Positions 7,797-60,028 of a DNA stretch of 60,028 nucleotides are shown piece after piece (the stretch's first letter is position 1; every line of letters begins with the position of its first letter). Position numbers and translations under genes: made by a program. The notes under the pieces are model-generated. The model saw only the letters and a list, made by a program, of their open reading frames with translations, was not told where the DNA came from and did no database searches. This DNA is from Gekko japonicus (lineage: Eukaryota): assembly GCF_001447785.1 (NCBI RefSeq), contig NW_015166462.1, positions 442,116 through 502,143 of the forward strand. The letters are read 5' to 3'.

Positions 7797-10715
7797 CTAG
7801 GGCTGCTGTTCCTTGTGGCTCCCCATGGCGGCGAAGCGCTCCATCTTGTGAATGTGGCGGTGCTTCTTGAGCCCGTAGGTGTTGGAGAAGGCTTCCCCGC
7901 AGGTGCTGCACTTGAAGGGCCGCCCGCCCTGGTGGGCCTGGAGGTGCTTGCTGAAATACTTGGGGTCCTTGAAGAGCTTGAGGCAGGCCCCACATCTCAA
8001 CTCGCGCTTGGCGTCGTGGGAGCGCTGGTGGCGCAGGATGGACGACAGGTAGAAGAAGCTCTTGGAGCAGCGGTCGCAGCGGTAGACCTTCTCGCCCAGG
8101 TGCACTCGCTGGTGCTCCAGGAGGTTGCTGCGGTAGCGGAAGGTCTTGCCACAGGTGGGGCAGCGCTGGGGCCTGGCCACCACGTGGAGGCGCTGATGCT
8201 CGGCCAGGCTGGATGACTGCGCAAAGCGCTTGTTGCAGAGGGCACATTTGTAGGCCCGCTCGCCCGTGTGCACCACTTTGTGTTGGCGCAGGTACCACGA
8301 GCGCAGGAAGCCACGGCCACAGACGGCACAGCGGTACGGGCGCTCCTCTGTGTGGCACCGCTGGTGGCGCATCAGGAGAGCGGCCTCCCAGAAGCGCTTC
8401 CCACAGACTGGGCAGGAGAAATGGCGCTTCTGGAGATGGGTACGGCGGTGCAGCAGCAGGTCGTAGGCCCCCGCGAAACTCTGCCCACACACCGAACAGG
8501 CCAGTGTGCGGCGCACCAGGTGCACATACTTGTGGGTGACGAGCCCCAGGAAATGCTTGAAGGTCTGGCCGCAGATGGAGCAGGAGAAGCGCTCCCCGCT
8601 CGGCAAGGTGGGGTGGTGGTCTTCGTAGGATGCCGCCATGTTGTCGCCGCCGGCCAGCCCGTTCTCCAGGGGAGCCACTGCAGCTGCCGTCTCATCCGGG
8701 GGCAGGAGCCGCTCGGGGGCCGCCTGGTGGACCAGCTTGTGCCACATGAGGTTCTCAATGAAGCCGAAGCACTTGCCGCAGGCATCGCAAGGGTACGGCT
8801 TCTCGGCCACGTGGACCTCCTTGTGGCTCATGACGTGAAAGAGGTCGGGGAAGCGCTCTCCGCAGTCGGAGCACCCGTAGGTCAGCCCCTCAGGAGGAGG
8901 GGGCAGCGAGGGCCCCATGGATGTCAGCGAGGGCCCAATGGGGGGCAAAGAGCAAGGAAGCTGCAGCCGGTGGATCTGCTTGTGCCGGGTTAAGCTCTGC
9001 GGGTAGCCAAAAACCTTCCCGCAGATCTCGCACTTGTAGGGCCTCTCCCGCGTGTGCACCACGTGGTGCTTGCTGAGGTGGAAGGACTCGCGGAAGCGCT
9101 TCCCACACACCGCACACTGGTGGGGCTTCTCCCCTGTGTGGATCCGCTCGTGCCGTTTGAGCGTCTCCCTCCGCCCAAACCCACGGCCACAGATCCCGCA
9201 GCAGAAGTTCTTGCCCGCCGCCGTCCCCACCAACAGCGGGTGGGCCCCCAGAAGCCCATACGGGGCTGGCTTGGTGTCTCCGTCAGAGCTGGTAGCCTGC
9301 CCGTCTTGGGGGAGGAGATAGGCCCCTGGCGGTAGGTAGGACAGGGCAGCGTTGGTGCCATCCTTGGGCAGCTGGGCTCCCTCGTGTTGCAGCTGCCGAT
9401 GGCGCAGGAGGTTCTGGGGGGCGACGTAGCCCTTGCCGCAGATGTCACACTTGTATTCCGGGCGCGGGGGGATGGTTCCGGGTGGGGCGTGGGTGGCCTG
9501 GTGCTTGAGCAGATAGGAGGCATCCCGGAATTCCTTGCCGCATACCCCGCACTGCACTCGCAGGAGGTCCGAATGGGTCCGGACGTGACGCTTCAGGCTC
9601 TCGCGACGGTTGAAGCTCTTCTGGCACACGGAGCACGAGAACGGCTTTTCGCCGGTGTGGATGATCTGGTGCTGGTGCAGGTGGCTCGGCTTCTTGAACA
9701 CTTTCCAGCACAGAGAACAAGTGAAAGGGCCTTCTGTCTGAGCAATGGCGGCACCCAGAGCAGAGGCAGCCGTCACCCCGGTGGGTGTTGGTACGACCTG
9801 CGGGTTGCTGCTTTGGGAGGGAGGTTGGGCAGCTCCCTCAGCACTGGGGGCAGCTGCCGCGTTGGCTACGGCGGCTGCAGCAGCTGCCGCAGCCGCTACA
9901 TTGGCAGCTGCCGCATTGGCGGCTGCCGTGACATCCTCAGAGTCCTTGTGACAGCGTCGGTGCCGGATGAGACTGGAGATATGGTTGTAGGTGCGCCCGC
10001 AAGTGGTGCACTCGTACGGCCGTTCGCCTGTATGCACCAGCATGTGCTGTACCAGGTGGGACGACTGCTTGAATGACTTCTGACACACCCCACACGGGAA
10101 ACGCCGATCGATGAAGTACTTTAAGCGCCGGAAGTAGTTCTTGTCGTCCTTGATGGCCTGGCTGTCAGGGGTAACGGAGGAGGTGGCCTGCGGTGGTGCC
10201 TGCCCACGTTTCAGGCTATTGAAGAGGTGCTGGTGGCCGGAAAGATCCACGATACCCCACTGTGGAGTGTTGTAGGCAGCAGCGGCAGCTGCAGCAGCTG
10301 CTGTAGTATCAAAGAGAGGCTGGCCGGTTGGCGGAACCACTGCTGGCGCACTGTATGGGGGTTGTGGCTGTTGTGGTGGCTGCTGCTGTGAGGCCGGGGC
10401 CCCAGGGTCGGGTTTCTTGACTTGCACGTTCGTGGAAGAGGTGGAGGAGGAAGAGGAAGAGGAGGGCCCTTCAGTTTTGGGCTTAGAAGTGCCGACGGTT
10501 GAAGGGATGCGGTCAAAGTGAGCAGGCGGGGCAGCAGTGGGTGGCTGGGCGTACTCGTAAGGCGGCTGCGGGCAGGGGAGGGTGGCGACTGCTTTGGCGT
10601 GTTCGTGGTTATAAGCCTCCATAGGTTCAAAGCGCTGGTGGTTCAGGAACTCCAGGAAGTCGAAGGGGTAGCTCTGGAAATGCACACCCTCGTCGCTCGC
10701 TGCATTGGCTTCCAT
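7797..10715 (-). CDS. ZNF865: Zinc finger protein 865, single coding exon, 20 C2H2 fingers
   Basis: Intact 972-aa ORF. The N-terminus EGVHFQSYPFDFLEFLNHQRFEPME matches the ZNF865 N-terminus as I recall it. I counted 20 C2H2 motifs, several joined by TGE(K/R)P linkers. Good Kozak context (gagATGG). Splice acceptor tttctttgtccag lies 23 nt upstream of the ATG (exon starts 10738). Confidence 0.95.
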   Translation of the reverse strand: MEANAASDEGVHFQSYPFDFLEFLNHQRFEPMEAYNHEHAKAVATLPCPQPPYEYAQPPTAAPPAHFDRIPSTVGTSKPKTEGPSSSSSSSTSSTNVQVKKPDPGAPASQQQPPQQPQPPYSAPAVVPPTGQPLFDTTAAAAAAAAAYNTPQWGIVDLSGHQHLFNSLKRGQAPPQATSSVTPDSQAIKDDKNYFRRLKYFIDRRFPCGVCQKSFKQSSHLVQHMLVHTGERPYECTTCGRTYNHISSLIRHRRCHKDSEDVTAAANAAAANVAAAAAAAAAVANAAAAPSAEGAAQPPSQSSNPQVVPTPTGVTAASALGAAIAQTEGPFTCSLCWKVFKKPSHLHQHQIIHTGEKPFSCSVCQKSFNRRESLKRHVRTHSDLLRVQCGVCGKEFRDASYLLKHQATHAPPGTIPPRPEYKCDICGKGYVAPQNLLRHRQLQHEGAQLPKDGTNAALSYLPPGAYLLPQDGQATSSDGDTKPAPYGLLGAHPLLVGTAAGKNFCCGICGRGFGRRETLKRHERIHTGEKPHQCAVCGKRFRESFHLSKHHVVHTRERPYKCEICGKVFGYPQSLTRHKQIHRLQLPCSLPPIGPSLTSMGPSLPPPPEGLTYGCSDCGERFPDLFHVMSHKEVHVAEKPYPCDACGKCFGFIENLMWHKLVHQAAPERLLPPDETAAAVAPLENGLAGGDNMAASYEDHHPTLPSGERFSCSICGQTFKHFLGLVTHKYVHLVRRTLACSVCGQSFAGAYDLLLHRRTHLQKRHFSCPVCGKRFWEAALLMRHQRCHTEERPYRCAVCGRGFLRSWYLRQHKVVHTGERAYKCALCNKRFAQSSSLAEHQRLHVVARPQRCPTCGKTFRYRSNLLEHQRVHLGEKVYRCDRCSKSFFYLSSILRHQRSHDAKRELRCGACLKLFKDPKYFSKHLQAHQGGRPFKCSTCGEAFSNTYGLKKHRHIHKMERFAAMGSHKEQQP

Positions 10716-10847
10716 CTCCGCCCGGGAGGGGGCACTGCCTGGACAAAGAAATGAAACATGCCATCAACATACATACATATGCACACTACATACATCAAGT
10801 TTCTCCCCTGCAGCAGCTCCTTGTTTTTTCAGGCCTAACAATAACTC

Positions 10848-32578: not shown

Positions 32579-33694
32579 TTATGGGGGCTGGATCTGAAGT
32601 TTGTCTTTGTCCTTAACAGGTTCCGTTTCTGGCAGATGTGACATGGCTACAGGTGTGCCTCCTGCTCCGCCTTCTTCAGGTTCCCCCCAGTGGCTGCCAT
32701 CCCCAACCCAGTCCTCCACGGCGTCATTGGTCCAGCCACTGTCAAGCTCCTCTGCCCCCCAGTCCCCAGTCCCTGCCACTTCTGATTCCCAGTCCCCTGC
32801 CATAGTCCAACTGCCGCCTCCCTCCTCGACAGAGCGCTGGTAGTAGGTCTCGCGGGCATGTTTGCGCTTGGCGTGCCGACGGAGGGTGTTGCGCTCTGTG
32901 AAGCGCAGCCGGCAAATCTGGCACTGGTACGGCTTCTCCCCTGTGTGCACCCGCTGGTGGCGCAGGAGCTCGCCGGATTCGCGGAAGCCCTTGCGGCAGA
33001 CGGGGCAGCTGAAGGGCCGCTCGCCGGTGTGGATGTGCTTGTGCCGCTGGAGGTGCGAGGAGCGTTTGAACGCCTTGCCACACTCCCGGCACACGTACGG
33101 CTTGCTCTCCGAGTGGGTGATGCTGTGGCGCTCCAAGTCCGATTGGTACAGGAACGTCCGTAGGCAGATCGGACAGAAGTACAGCTGCCGTGGTGGTGGA
33201 GCCGCTGCCAACAGCTCGGGCTCTGAAGATTGCACCTGCCCGGCCAGCTCCACCTCCTGCCGGGATACCGTGTGAGGCACCCCTTCCGCATCGATCAGCA
33301 CCAAGGAGCCCTCATCGGTTGCGTCTCCGTCTCCCAGCTGGCCACGATGCTTGGCAGCAGAAGGCTGGATGCTGGACCGCCCCCCTCTGTGTCTGGTCAG
33401 TGCTGAGTGCAGTTTTGGCCCCCACAGGGCAATGCTGTAGATCTCAGGATGGGAGGGCCGGTCCTCTAGTCCAATATGGTTCTGGGGGATATCATTATTG
33501 AGCGGTGCCTGCGTGTAGTGGGCCCAAGGAACTGGGGGGCAGGTTTCTATCACCTGGTGCTCAAGCCCGATGCCGCCATGGCTTTCCGCTCTTGGCCAAC
33601 TACTCCCGCTGGGCACCAGCACCCGAGCCTTTGCCTGCAGCTCCACTGGATGCCCATCACCCCTCTCGACATGCCACCTGTGAGATGGCTCCAT
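32579..33694 (-). CDS. ZNF524: Zinc finger protein 524, single coding exon, 4 C2H2 fingers
   Basis: Intact 371-aa ORF. The fingers FCPICLRTFLYQSDLERHSITH through YQCQICRLRFTERNTLRRHAKRKH and the LVLIDAEGVPHTVS motif match ZNF524 as recalled. It lies upstream of ZNF865 on the same strand, as in mammals. Acceptor ttctcccatctccacag, exon starts 33736. Confidence 0.92.
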   Translation of the reverse strand: MEPSHRWHVERGDGHPVELQAKARVLVPSGSSWPRAESHGGIGLEHQVIETCPPVPWAHYTQAPLNNDIPQNHIGLEDRPSHPEIYSIALWGPKLHSALTRHRGGRSSIQPSAAKHRGQLGDGDATDEGSLVLIDAEGVPHTVSRQEVELAGQVQSSEPELLAAAPPPRQLYFCPICLRTFLYQSDLERHSITHSESKPYVCRECGKAFKRSSHLQRHKHIHTGERPFSCPVCRKGFRESGELLRHQRVHTGEKPYQCQICRLRFTERNTLRRHAKRKHARETYYQRSVEEGGGSWTMAGDWESEVAGTGDWGAEELDSGWTNDAVEDWVGDGSHWGEPEEGGAGGTPVAMSHLPETEPVKDKDKLQIQPP

Positions 33695-35084
33695 CGGGCA
33701 CCAGGAACAAGAGCGCGTTCAGCTACACGGACATTGCTGTGGAGATGGGAGAACAGTGAGAACCACACACAAGCCCACCTGGAAGCATTCCCACCCCAGA
33801 AATGCATTCCATCATCTTAGGGGCAAAACCTCTATGACCTTTCCACTTCAAGCCACGAGAACATATCGGCGTATGATTGCCAGAAGGCTAGCTGAACCAA
33901 ACTATAGCAGCAAAAAGCAGTCTGAAGCAATGTTCTGCAACGCTTACTTAGGAGAAAGTCTCATTAAACTCATCAGATTTCAATTTCACAGTAAATGCAT
34001 GGAAATTAAGCTATGAATAAACTTTGAAACTAGAGAATAAACTCCTCTGACACTTTCTCCAAAGTGGGCTACAAATCTAAATGAAAGAGCTTATGTTGTG
34101 TGATAGTATGTACATACACACATCTGCCTTAAATCTGTGTATGCCATTATTTTAATACATACACAGAATTTAGGGATGATTATGCACTTAAACATGGATG
34201 TAACTGTGGACAATGTATGTGCAATCTCAATGGGATGCAGAGATTTTATGTATGGTGTCTTTCTTTGTCAATGCAAATGTGTGTGTGTACAATGCCTACA
34301 ACACATTTAGGAGCATAATCAGATACCCAAACATGCATGGGAATGGTTATACGTGCACTGTGGCATTTGCCCTTGGGTGCTTCCCAAGTATGTATGCTGT
34401 CACCACCAAATCTATGAATTTAGTTCCATTTAACACTGGTAACACAGATTAGCTCTCCTTTAACCATTGTGCCATCAATCAGGTTGGCTGAAGACTGCCT
34501 TCATGCATGCTTTCAGTCTGTGCATGTGGATGAAGTGGGAATTACAAACTGCATGCACAATCATAAGGAACCACAACAAGTAGTTATTCTAGACCAATTA
34601 AAAGAAAACAGAGGAATGCGATGGGGTGGGGGGAAGATGGCATCTATCACTGACTTAAGAGGTGAGGGTGGACGTGGATAGATATAGAAATTGTTACGTG
34701 TGTCCAATGCTTGTGTCCTTTACTCTGAAGGTTTGTGCAAACATGAACAATTCTGCAACATAAGTGATACTTCTTGCAAGTACAATGGGATGGTTCACAG
34801 ATGTTAAGGGGTCACTAATCCATACTGCATGTTTAGAAGAATTGACATGTGCCCTAAAAATAATTCTCACAGAACTCTCAACATTCCCTCAGGGCTTTGC
34901 CATCTACTCTCAAGAGATGGTGGCTGTTAGCAGAAGTAAGTCATCTGTTGGGCACTCTCTCTAGCCACTTGCATCTACTGAGAGAGACACACATAGCAGC
35001 CATCTCACAGTACGGCCGCCAAGCACGAGAGCTTAGAGCTTAAATTTGCCATTCGGCTCCAGAACCCATTTTCAACCTTGTTAC

Positions 35085-56320: not shown

Positions 56321-57425
56321 TTATTTTCTGTGCCCCAGTTGTTTTGAAGTGCCTGTGTTTATTTTCTGTGCCCAATATGTATATAGTTAAATAAATCTTC
56401 CTTTTCTGAGTTTAAAAAGCCTGGTGTGCCTTAACCACATAGTCCTCCCCGCTTTTCACATTACCAGGGGCAAAGGGAGGCCAGGGGACACAAACGGGCC
56501 TAAATCTGAGGGTTTGCCAACTCTCCAGGGGGCACCCAAAGATCGAGATACCCACTTCTCAAGGTGGGGAATTTATCCAGAGGGGTCTCACTGTCCCTCA
56601 AGGAAGGCGGTAACTCAATTCCAGCAGTAACGAAGAGAAATAGTCCCACCAGGCGGGTGGGAAGGCCAAAACAGGGGCTTGCAAGCCACAGGACGGCACA
56701 TCAGTCTCCCAGGGCTGAGGGCGGGTCCCCATTTCGCCACAGACAGAGGGCATAAAATAATGTCTGGTGGTAGGTTCTGGATTCAGATTTCATACCAAAT
56801 CGGAAACCGCGGTCAGATGCTGGGCTTTGCATGGAGTCTGGATGGGGAAACCATGATGATAGGTGCTGTCTCACTGGCTACAGCACGGAAACATGAGTGA
56901 ATTTATAAAGCGGAGCTCTGGGAAGACAGAGAATAGACGGGCTATTTGCCTGCTGTACATCTGCAGTGACATCGTATGCAGAGTGGGTGGTGGAAAGTGC
57001 TATCGAGTCCTGGGGGGGGGGCCTTGCGCGGAACTTCCGGCTGCGATGGGCGGGGCTCGGGTCACTCCCAATGCCCAAATCCTTTTCGCGTCTTTCGGGG
57101 CCTCCCGGAGCCCGGGAGAGCCCTAACAGTTCCCTAGTGTGGAGAACTGGAGCAAGGGTTTTTTGTTGCGGCTCCTCCCGCGATTGGCGACGCGGGGGGG
57201 TGTGTCTGCTTCCTACCCTGAAGTGGGCGCGGATTGCGAGTGAGAACATGGCCTCCATGTTCTCTATAGCTGCTGCCTTCCGTCTGTTTTTATTCAAACT
57301 CGTATGGGATATACAGCAACGAAGAAAATAAGTAGCAAATACATGCATCTTTACGTTGAAAGCAAAGAAACCCCGAATCGTTTTGGCACGAAAGGAAAAT
57401 AAAGCGGCCAGAAAAGAGAGCTAAG

Positions 57426-57738
57426 CAGGGGTCTTGTTGTAGAAAAAGAGCTGCCGGAGCTCATTAGCATAACTCATTAGCATAACTTATTTGCATATGC
57501 CACGCCCCCTGACATCACCGGAAGTGACAGAAGGCCACACCCCCTGACATCACCGGAAGTGTGTCAGAAGGCCCGGCTACTTACCCTCCTGCTTCATCCT
57601 CATTCCCAAACGGAATGAGGATCGAAGCAGAGGGCGGGGTAAAGAAGGGGGCGGGGCTTCACCACGTGACCGCCCCGCCCCCTAGAGGTTCTCTTCCGGA
57701 GCTCCGTACCTGAGAGCTCCCCCCCGACTAGAGCCCTG
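57426..57738 (-). mobile_element. Young hAT MITE, TSD gagctaag
   Basis: Near-identical reverse complement of 25868-26183, with a perfect TSD. Confidence 0.85.
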
Positions 57739-57831
57739 GAGCTAAGTATATATATACTTTTTCTGCTTTCTATCGGGGGAAAAAGTGTTGTGTTCTTGGG
57801 ACAGGACTACTGAGACTTGAACTGTGTGAAA

Positions 57832-58431
57832 ATGGTGTCCGAAAGGGGAGATGAATTAGAGAAGGAACTGGTTGGAGAAATGATGGAGCAATTTCTAAAG
57901 GCTTTAAAAGAAGGAATTCAGGAGGGCATTAAAGAGGGATTTAAGGCAGCATTTGCAAGCTTACATGAACCCCCTATATTATTTGAGAATACCGAGACTG
58001 TTGAAAACTGTATTCAGATTCCGGAGAGTGTGGAACAGACTTTGGAGGTGGAGCAAGAAAAGGAGGAAGTGGAGTTGGAATATACATCGGCACAAAGGAA
58101 TAATGAGGAAATAATTAATGGGAGCAAGTTGAAGAGAGAGAAGACAAAAGGAGAAGGAACGATGTTTAAAGTGAAGAAAAAATGGAAAAGGGGAAGACGA
58201 GACCGAAATGTGTGCAAGATTCAAAGGTTCAGGAAATTATGGAGACAGGTTGTTTCAAAAAACATTGAGGAGAGACTGGAAATGAATTACCATTTGTGCA
58301 AAGGAAAAGAACATGTAGATATGCTACTGCGGATAGGAAAATTACTGGTGTATAGAAGGCAAAATAAATTATATGCACTTATATATATGTTGATTTTTAT
58401 GGACTGTTTAGATCGGAGTAGATTGATTTAG
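57832..58431 (+). CDS. TE-borne 199-aa ORF: acidic helical N-terminus, basic C-terminus, unknown function
   Basis: ATG in strong Kozak context aaaATGG; open for 199 codons inside the TSD-bounded element; no RT or EN motifs. Expression is unproven. Confidence 0.45.
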   Translation: MVSERGDELEKELVGEMMEQFLKALKEGIQEGIKEGFKAAFASLHEPPILFENTETVENCIQIPESVEQTLEVEQEKEEVELEYTSAQRNNEEIINGSKLKREKTKGEGTMFKVKKKWKRGRRDRNVCKIQRFRKLWRQVVSKNIEERLEMNYHLCKGKEHVDMLLRIGKLLVYRRQNKLYALIYMLIFMDCLDRSRLI

Positions 58432-58636
58432 GTTACAGAATTTAGGGAAAGTCAGAGGTTGAGTATAGGTGTCTGATATGAATTGTGTAGATTACAATAA
58501 ATTGATTTTAGAAGATAGGACCGAGGATTAAGTGCTAATGGAGAGATTTAAAGGTGATGGCATGAAGCGTTGTTAGGAAATTAAATGAAATCAAATTACA
58601 TGAATTTATTTATATTTATTTATATTTTGATCTTGT

Positions 58637-58979
58637 AAGGTAAAGGTAAAGGTTCCCTTGCTCGAAAGCCAGTCGAATCCGACTCTAGGGTTGCGGTGCT
58701 CATCTCCGTTTCAAAGCCGAAGAGCCAGCGCTGTCTGAAGACGTTTCCGTGGTCATGTGGCCGGCATGACTAAACACCAAGGTGCACGGAACGCTGTTAC
58801 CTTCCCACCGCAGTGGTCCCTATTTATCTACTTGCAATTTCTTGCTTTCGAACTGCTAGGTTGGCAGGAGCTGGAACTAGAGATGGGAGCTCACTCCATC
58901 ATGCGGCACCCGGGTCTTGAACTGCTGAACTACTGACCTTCCACAGCCTGCAGTTCAGCGTCTTAACCACTTGAGCCAC
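58637..58979 (-). mobile_element. Sauria SINE
   Basis: (aaaggt)n tail and Sauria body. Confidence 0.85.
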
Positions 58980-60028
58980 TTGAGTAAATTGATGTAGGCT
59001 AAAGCTGAAGGCATGAATTGTTGGGTGATGTAATTTTCATTTAGTTATCTATTTATATGGTTTGGTATAAAATAAAATGAGTTTAACTAATATAAGTATG
59101 TTGGAATATATATATATAATGTTTGGATTACTGGACACTTTACAAAGGAGTTTAAAATATTGGATAATATGCTTTTTTCTTTTTCTTGACATTAAATGGC
59201 AGTAAAGAACACTTTTGGCCGGAATAGGTGGGAGGTAAACAACGAAAATAGTGGAAAACTAAAATAAAAAGAAATAAAATGTTATAAAAATCTAAATGGT
59301 AGGATAAATATTATTGTTGGAGTAAGTGGAAATTTAGATAGTGGACTGTCTAAAGAAAATAAGGTGGATAAAGAAAATTATAAAATATTATTATTGGATG
59401 CATGTACGGGAAAAATTGTTCTAGTTTATGATTGAATAAGAAGAAGGAAAATGTAATTGTCGGTGGATCGTGTTGCTGTTTAGGAACATTTATATATGGT
59501 GATAATTGGATGAATTGTTTATGTAAAACATATTATAGGTTTATGCATTGCACTGAAAAACTCAATAAAAATATTACACACACACACAAAAAGAAAGTGC
59601 TATCGAGTCCCTGCTGACTTCTGGCAATCTCTCCAGGGGTTTTCAAGGCAAGAGGGGAACAGAGCTGCGACTTCCTCAGGGGTGTCCCATCCAAGCACTT
59701 AACCAGGGCCCGACCCTGCTTCGCTTCAGAGGTCTGATAAGGTCAGGCTGAGAGATCCCAGTCTAAAGGGCCATTGTGGTCCTGTGGGTTTGCCTGGAGT
59801 AAGTGTGTCTAGGATTGCAGGGTTCGAAGTGTCAGCCGTGGCTTGGTTGTCATGGTAAGTACAAGCCCTGTGGCAACTTTGTTGAACTTGTGCCAAGTGG
59901 GCTGATGAGCTGATCTAGAACCACCTTGTGCCTGACGGTACCTTTTGCCTGTCTCTTTCTGTCTCTGTCTCTCTCCCCCCCCTCCCCTTGTCACAGAATG
60001 GGCTTTCGACAGAGATCGCCTCCATTCC

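Follow-up and report, generated by a model that had tools for sequence, protein, structure and literature searches.

The DNA examined here is a window of 60,028 nucleotides from Gekko japonicus contig NW_015166462.1, in which an insertion occupies positions 56993 to 59610. A first-pass annotation had described this insertion as about 2.58 kb (some 1.9 kb net of nested repeats) within a perfect 18-bp target-site duplication (TSD), and these values were confirmed: the element between the TSDs (57011 to 59592) is 2,582 bp long, with a core of 1,917 bp once the two nested repeats are removed. Its parts are as follows.

56993 to 57010: left TSD, GAAAGTGCTATCGAGTCC, 18 bp, 100% identical to 59593 to 59610
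57011 to 57425, plus strand: first part of the leader, CpG-rich, with an extra G-run, the ACTTCCGG start motif, a short inverted repeat, and a palindrome
57245 to 57261: palindrome AACATGG..CCATGTT in the leader, kept in nearly all aligned family leaders
57426 to 57738: nested MITE of 313 bp with CAGGG..CCCTG ends and an 8-bp TSD, GAGCTAAG, at 57418 to 57425 and 57739 to 57746
57739 to 57831, plus strand: remainder of the leader, opening with the AGCTAAGTA motif common to the L1 group discussed below
57832 to 58431, plus strand: single ORF of 199 amino acids
58432 to 58635, plus strand: first part of the 3' trailer, AT-rich
58636 to 58979, minus strand: Sauria-type SINE ending in (ACCTTT)n
58980 to 59592, plus strand: remainder of the 3' trailer, with poly(A) signal and AC/A tail
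59564 to 59569, plus strand: AATAAA poly(A) signal
59576 to 59592, plus strand: (AC)n/A5 tail
59593 to 59610: right TSD, GAAAGTGCTATCGAGTCC, 18 bp, a perfect match to the left copy

Direct reading of the window places a run of 10 G residues at 57012 to 57021, ACTTCCGG at 57033 to 57040, GGGCGGGG at 57048 to 57055, and AACATGGC at 57245 to 57252. The ETS, GC box, and YY1-like labels of the first-pass annotation denote putative sites recognized by motif. The CpG richness claimed for the leader was borne out, with an observed/expected ratio of 0.79 over 57011 to 57300 versus 0.39 for the whole window. Upstream ATG frames are present within the leader, and in the window copy the palindrome opens one of 27 codons (57245 to 57331) in a strong Kozak context. 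The ORF itself starts in the strong Kozak context ascribed to it (A at -3 and G at +4), and the AATAAA and A/CA tail lie downstream as annotated. Elsewhere in the window, two C2H2 zinc-finger coding frames on the minus strand (7800 to 10763 and 32582 to 33718) represent ordinary host genes.

Both nested repeats named in the first-pass annotation were found. The MITE, which we take to be of the hAT type, is young; a 100% identical copy exists at locus L178 of the same genome, and the MITE is missing from other copies of the family described below. Its insertion point lies inside the conserved AGCTAAGT motif of the leader. At the MITE edges, contigs of runs X2 and X3 diverge from the reference, suggesting that other alleles may be without it. 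The (ACCTTT)n end of the second repeat corresponds to the Sauria SINE tail as given in the available text of PMC13295347, which marks the host as a squamate.

Family copies and the origin of the leader

The insertion belongs to a large family in the window's own genome (G000; L-numbers denote loci fetched from it). In a DNA search, 40 of 160 candidates were scored and yielded at least 78 matches, and thus the element is not the single copy that the first-pass annotation had named as counting against its proposal. Three divergent members used as protein queries had at least 156, 144, and 72 matches in overlapping sets; 150 candidates were scored out of 1,052, 1,523, and 830, respectively, and the counts are lower bounds. 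Most copies were recovered by protein search, which biases the collection toward open frames.

Among 137 distinct copies with enough flank, 72 have a TSD of their own of 10 to 23 bp, and all 72 differ, the shortest of them possibly including chance calls. The first position of the TSD is A in 47 of the 72, as is the second (47 of 72). The median copy length is 2,175 bp, and the TSD-bounded copies, which measure 1.8 to 2.4 kb, have a coding capacity of one ORF of ~200 amino acids with no endonuclease (EN) or reverse transcriptase (RT). The ORF is intact in 55 of the 137 copies, and an ATG frame of at least 173 codons is present in 15 of 30 loci found by DNA alone (three contain Ns). 5'-truncated copies with TSDs of 15 to 20 bp were seen at L046, L049, L055, and L056, partly inverted ones were seen at L032 and L079, and a poly(A) signal and A-rich tail were found across family copies. 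Variable TSDs of their own, A-rich starts, 5' truncation, and inversion are the traces that target-primed reverse transcription of the L1 type leaves. The proposed multicopy, non-autonomous family of L1 type is upheld, with independent TSDs, a single maintained ORF, and a common 5' end, which usually lies at or just before (G)ACTTCCGG. The G-run start proposed for the element is real in the window copy but peculiar to it and is not a trait of the family.

At identity levels of 90%, 85%, and 80%, the 137 copies form 84, 61, and 34 DNA clusters, respectively, and some copy pairs are 97% to 100% identical, indicating recent activity. Mapping of incomplete or rearranged ORF matches at 15 loci identified an internal ORF deletion in one of them, L081, where a family copy with full-length ends (L081:1500-3118) has lost the ORF a few codons past the ATG. 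Tandem duplications of the first trailer part and the ORF end occur in other family copies; as noted at L153, L133, L295, L303, and L305 and in the L008 3' trailer, the basic/C-terminal module is often duplicated in tandem without loss of frame, and the 3' trailer repeatedly holds decayed remnants of the ORF end. Locus L002 (99% match) is not taken as an independent copy, yet it is still counted among the 137: its sequence begins within the MITE, next to an assembly gap, has an ORF identical to that of the window, and continues after ~58500 with the sequence of another copy. At L002, L004, and L011, paralogous copies seem to have been misjoined in the assembly, and L004 and L011 have a 3' flank in common.

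The family leaders align across subfamilies. When a profile of them was compared with 49 L1 upstream regions, L236 (E value, 6e-6) and L237 (E value, 0.002) were matched. A reciprocal profile of 12 L1 5' ends, built from L1s picked for carrying AGCTAAGT, reached a score of at least 10 bits with 14 of the 117 family leaders, the top score being a low 16 bits, versus none of the 117 leaders when reversed, complemented, or reverse-complemented and none of 30 from another L1 group. The L1 and family leaders share the order of a TTCCGG start, a CTCTC..GAGAG inverted repeat, CCYGAAGC, and AGCTAAGT. The last motif is present in 14 of 19 L1s of the matching group and in none of 30 L1s from another group; a similar form occurs in 51 of the 117 family leaders (mean of shuffles, 13; highest, 21). 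Taken as sequence similarity that is weak but above controls, these matches indicate homology between the family leader and the 5' ends of a group of L1s with long 5' untranslated regions (5'UTRs) in this genome (L220 to L237). In the available text of PMC5381506 (section 9), the start of lizard clade 1 L1 is given as GACTTCCGGTGN8ATGGCG.

The family ORF was absent from the L1 loci examined, save for an adjacent family copy in L238. A profile of the family 3' end had a sole match among 19 L1 loci, the 3' end of L237, for which the bias exceeded the score. An origin of the ORF in purine-rich L1 5'UTR or in L1 coding DNA was also considered and rejected, with no match at the protein or DNA level. 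The genome holds another, abundant L1 group (L260 to L289) with many intact ORF1 frames at 79% to 96% identity and a 550-bp leader that starts GACTTCCGGTTGATGGCG and is not matched by the family profile.

The AGCTAAGTA motif (57738 to 57748; L220 to L237) differs from the U1-complementary 5' splice-site consensus mainly in having C at +1. L1 and the family may thus have in common a splice donor or a U1 site that does not serve splicing. In the L200, L211, L240, and L241 subfamilies, GTGAGT is found near the position of AGCTAAGTA.

The orphan protein and selection on its ORF

The 199-amino-acid protein has the following features.

Residues 18 to 46: conserved N-terminal helix, with EQFL..L.E.IQ plus Gxxx repeats
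Between the helix and the C-terminal motif: acidic linker, then a K/R-rich segment
Residues 148 to 181: conserved C-terminal motif

The net charge is -15 over residues 1 to 90 and +18 over residues 91 to 185, and the two conserved motifs are retained in lineages of about 20% identity. Two AlphaFold models consist of isolated helices without strands (pTM, 0.23 to 0.24); Foldseek with the pTM 0.24 model returned nothing at an E value of ≤0.001, which is uninformative given the model. A single-sequence homologue search with the window protein found no relative, and the ESM Atlas gave nothing usable for it, a second member scoring only up to 0.76. Neither the window protein nor 59 members had a Pfam match at the cut-off. 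A 35-sequence profile searched against 1.84 billion representative proteins had 15 matches, all of them Gekko kuhli gene predictions; nine of these interleave with G000 lineages in a tree, so that several lineages are common to the two genomes. A search of longer proteins added one chimeric G. kuhli model. The G. kuhli models P0005, P0016, and P0009 join the family N terminus to unrelated sequence and are probably prediction artifacts. Repeats are usually masked ahead of genome annotation, and the absence of the protein from other squamate proteomes therefore says little.

The family protein has no significant match to L1 ORF1p of this genome, Pfam, or PDB in the searches made, in line with the earlier observation that it lacks EN and RT motifs and the RRM and CTD of ORF1p. 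Were the family a true HAL1 (half-L1) by descent, its protein would be a highly eroded ORF1p, still with the N-terminal helix and an acidic-then-basic tail but stripped of the coiled coil, RRM, and CTD. In favor of this, the leader derives from an L1 group, the ORF occupies the place expected of ORF1, and the ORF1p of that group has a similar helix pattern at the N terminus and an acidic-then-basic tail; hhalign even puts the two helices in register. However, the helix alignment is not significant (probability, 1%; E value, 0.05; 1 of 60 column shuffles higher), the full-length proteins align with a probability of 0.2% to 0.5%, the tails reach 0.35%, below the reversed control, and Transposase_22 is missing from the listed Pfam matches of the 59 members. 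We regard such descent as unlikely. The first-pass label "HAL1-like" holds for the layout; descent from ORF1 was looked for and not detected.

The EQFL..L.E.IQ helix also weakly resembles helices 3 and 4 of the SCAN domain. If captured from SCAN or mimicking it, the helix could make the protein an anti-silencing decoy that interferes with host SCAN zinc-finger proteins, an improbable reading. The ZNF174 SCAN domain was the first or second PDB match of three family profiles (E values, 0.069, 0.015, and 0.015), but an unrelated phage protein did equally well in the PDB search (E value, 0.007), and we treat the motif as a lead only. Against gecko SCAN domains, hhalign gave an E value of 5e-4 and a score of 23.6, which none of 150 shuffles reached (maximum, 17.9), with a probability of just 13% to 32%; 96 of 121 N termini, and no reversed ones, scored at least 5 bits. 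The match nonetheless spans only ~12 to 17 residues chosen after the fact, lacks the proline of SCAN, and leaves helices 1, 2, and 5 unmatched; Pfam SCAN hits 1 of the 59 members (E value, 0.034), far below the cut-off, and the five-helix domain was not recovered. Potential targets abound, with at least 150 SCAN matches in this genome. According to the available text of PMC3458555, helix 3 belongs to the SCAN dimer core, whereas helix 4 lies outside the dimer interface. A decoy acting in trans would, moreover, account poorly for selection in cis. Lizards do have SCAN zinc-finger genes, and SCAN is similar to part of the Gypsy capsid, according to the available text of PMC4592553. The widest form of the proposal, in which the new protein of a vertebrate L1 parasite replaces ORF1p and a captured or mimicked SCAN helix disarms SCAN zinc-finger repressors across dozens of gecko lineages, is a long shot; if true, the protein would be a counterdefense factor encoded by a retroposon.

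An ORF not maintained was among the outcomes that the first-pass annotation had named as adverse. The ORF is in fact kept across copies: a codon model of 35 intact copies (174 codons) gave an omega of 0.61 (2dlnL, 108 against 1) versus 0.97 ± 0.09 in 12 column shuffles. Omega was 1.54 and 1.07 for the two remaining sense frames; the three antisense frames had values of 1.63, 1.18, and 0.72. By region, omega is 0.27 for residues 18 to 46, 0.72 for 47 to 90, 0.96 for 91 to 135, and 0.52 for 136 to 185, so that the basic segment at residues 91 to 135 is preserved in composition alone and not in sequence. Within the first 80 codons of 126 copies, 52 stops lie in frame versus 659 and 793 in the other frames. 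No site class with an omega above 1 was supported, giving no sign of positive selection. A set of 92 copies, including 34 with stops, again gave an omega of 0.61; internal branches had 0.58 and terminal branches 0.63 to 0.64, and the terminal value means that selection in active masters is inseparable from decay of dead copies. Such a low terminal omega is unlike that of dead copies alone and is likely caused by sparse sampling of many masters. Together, the codon data indicate purifying selection on the ORF in lineages as far apart as about 20% protein identity.

Selection might instead act on translation more than on its product, the open frame taking the RNA to ribosomes or shielding it from decay and so favoring ORF2p capture. 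Omega is 0.7 to 1 at the majority of sites, and in-frame indels and duplications are tolerated, as this explanation expects; however, 23 of 174 sites have a mean omega below 0.3 (F21 and H161, ~0.03), and the two motifs persist at great divergence. We consider it decidedly unlikely.

Retrocopies too show a TSD, poly(A), and a single ORF, and the family could on those grounds be processed pseudogenes of a host gene, or the window locus could hold a domesticated gene. Both are largely refuted and very improbable. The 137 copies fall into 34 clusters at 80% DNA identity with an L1-related leader, no host parent gene is among the 15 database matches (a processed pseudogene being another outcome named at the outset as adverse), and the internal-branch omega does not fit neutral decay of all copies. 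As for domestication, contigs of runs X2 and X3 carry a 13-nt deletion at 58086 that shifts the frame of the window ORF, so that the window copy itself is not conserved. The insertion as such is present in X2, whose contigs bridge both junctions. RNA over the ORF had a mean depth of 0 to 1.7 per direction in two RNA runs, a test that sees the window copy only, and no RNA data set was listed as containing the ORF stretch.

Proposed life cycle and comparison with known systems

The explanation that we favor, at roughly even odds, is a large family of ~2-kb non-autonomous retroposons likely copied by L1 ORF2, whose protein likely serves its own RNA in place of ORF1p. The CpG-rich leader, by its homology to L1 5' ends, would act as an internal Pol II promoter, and the polyadenylated RNA would be translated, as codon-level selection suggests. 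Judging from composition and conservation, the basic C-terminal half may bind the element RNA, and the N-terminal helix may oligomerize so that the RNA is packaged. L1 ORF2p would then insert the RNA in trans by target-primed reverse transcription, the footprints of which are observed; use of this enzyme is suggested by the A-rich target starts and the leader homology. As the protein is selected in a parasite unable to copy itself, its benefit should fall mainly on the encoding RNA, and we infer that it acts in cis as an ORF1p substitute.

Among the papers listed by literature searches, none describes such a family in its title or the start of its abstract; Repbase, Dfam, or supplements could hold an entry. 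The family has radiated over a long time, with some lineages found in Gekko kuhli as well as in this genome, and it seeds spurious "hypothetical proteins" and chimeric gene models in gecko annotations. It also offers a natural test of the minimum that an RNA must supply in cis for capture by L1 ORF2p and of whether the role of ORF1p can be reinvented.

SINEs and SVA are non-coding retroposons that depend on L1 for mobilization in trans. The family has long TSDs and A tails as they do but, unlike them, retains a protein-coding frame under selection. The family resembles the lizard long-5'UTR L1s (clade 1; Boissinot and Sookdeo, PMC5381506), as far as the available text describes them, in a start similar to the GACTTCCGGTG consensus, in AATAAA plus an A tail, and in many concurrent low-copy lineages, but it has no ORF1p, EN, or RT and measures 2 kb versus about 6.4 kb. 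The EQFL..L.E.IQ motif gives a borderline match to the SCAN domain (PF02023; ZNF174, PDB 1y7q), whereas the remainder of the five-helix domain is missing.

Among the closest counterparts is mammalian HAL1, which is likewise non-autonomous, with one ORF and an L1 5' end. According to the available text of PMC5753468, HAL1 encodes only ORF1p and had several independent origins in mammals. HAL1, the protein-coding L1 parasite of that account, keeps ORF1p; the gecko family keeps an unrelated-looking protein of ~200 amino acids (about 330 to 370 for the ORF1p frames of this genome) without the detectable ORF1p homology (coiled coil, RRM, and CTD) that defines HAL1, and its host is a lizard, in which dozens of its lineages run in parallel. 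With a layout like that of HAL1 and a protein unlike ORF1p, the family is best read, from its sequences, as an L1-dependent retroposon with an orphan protein.
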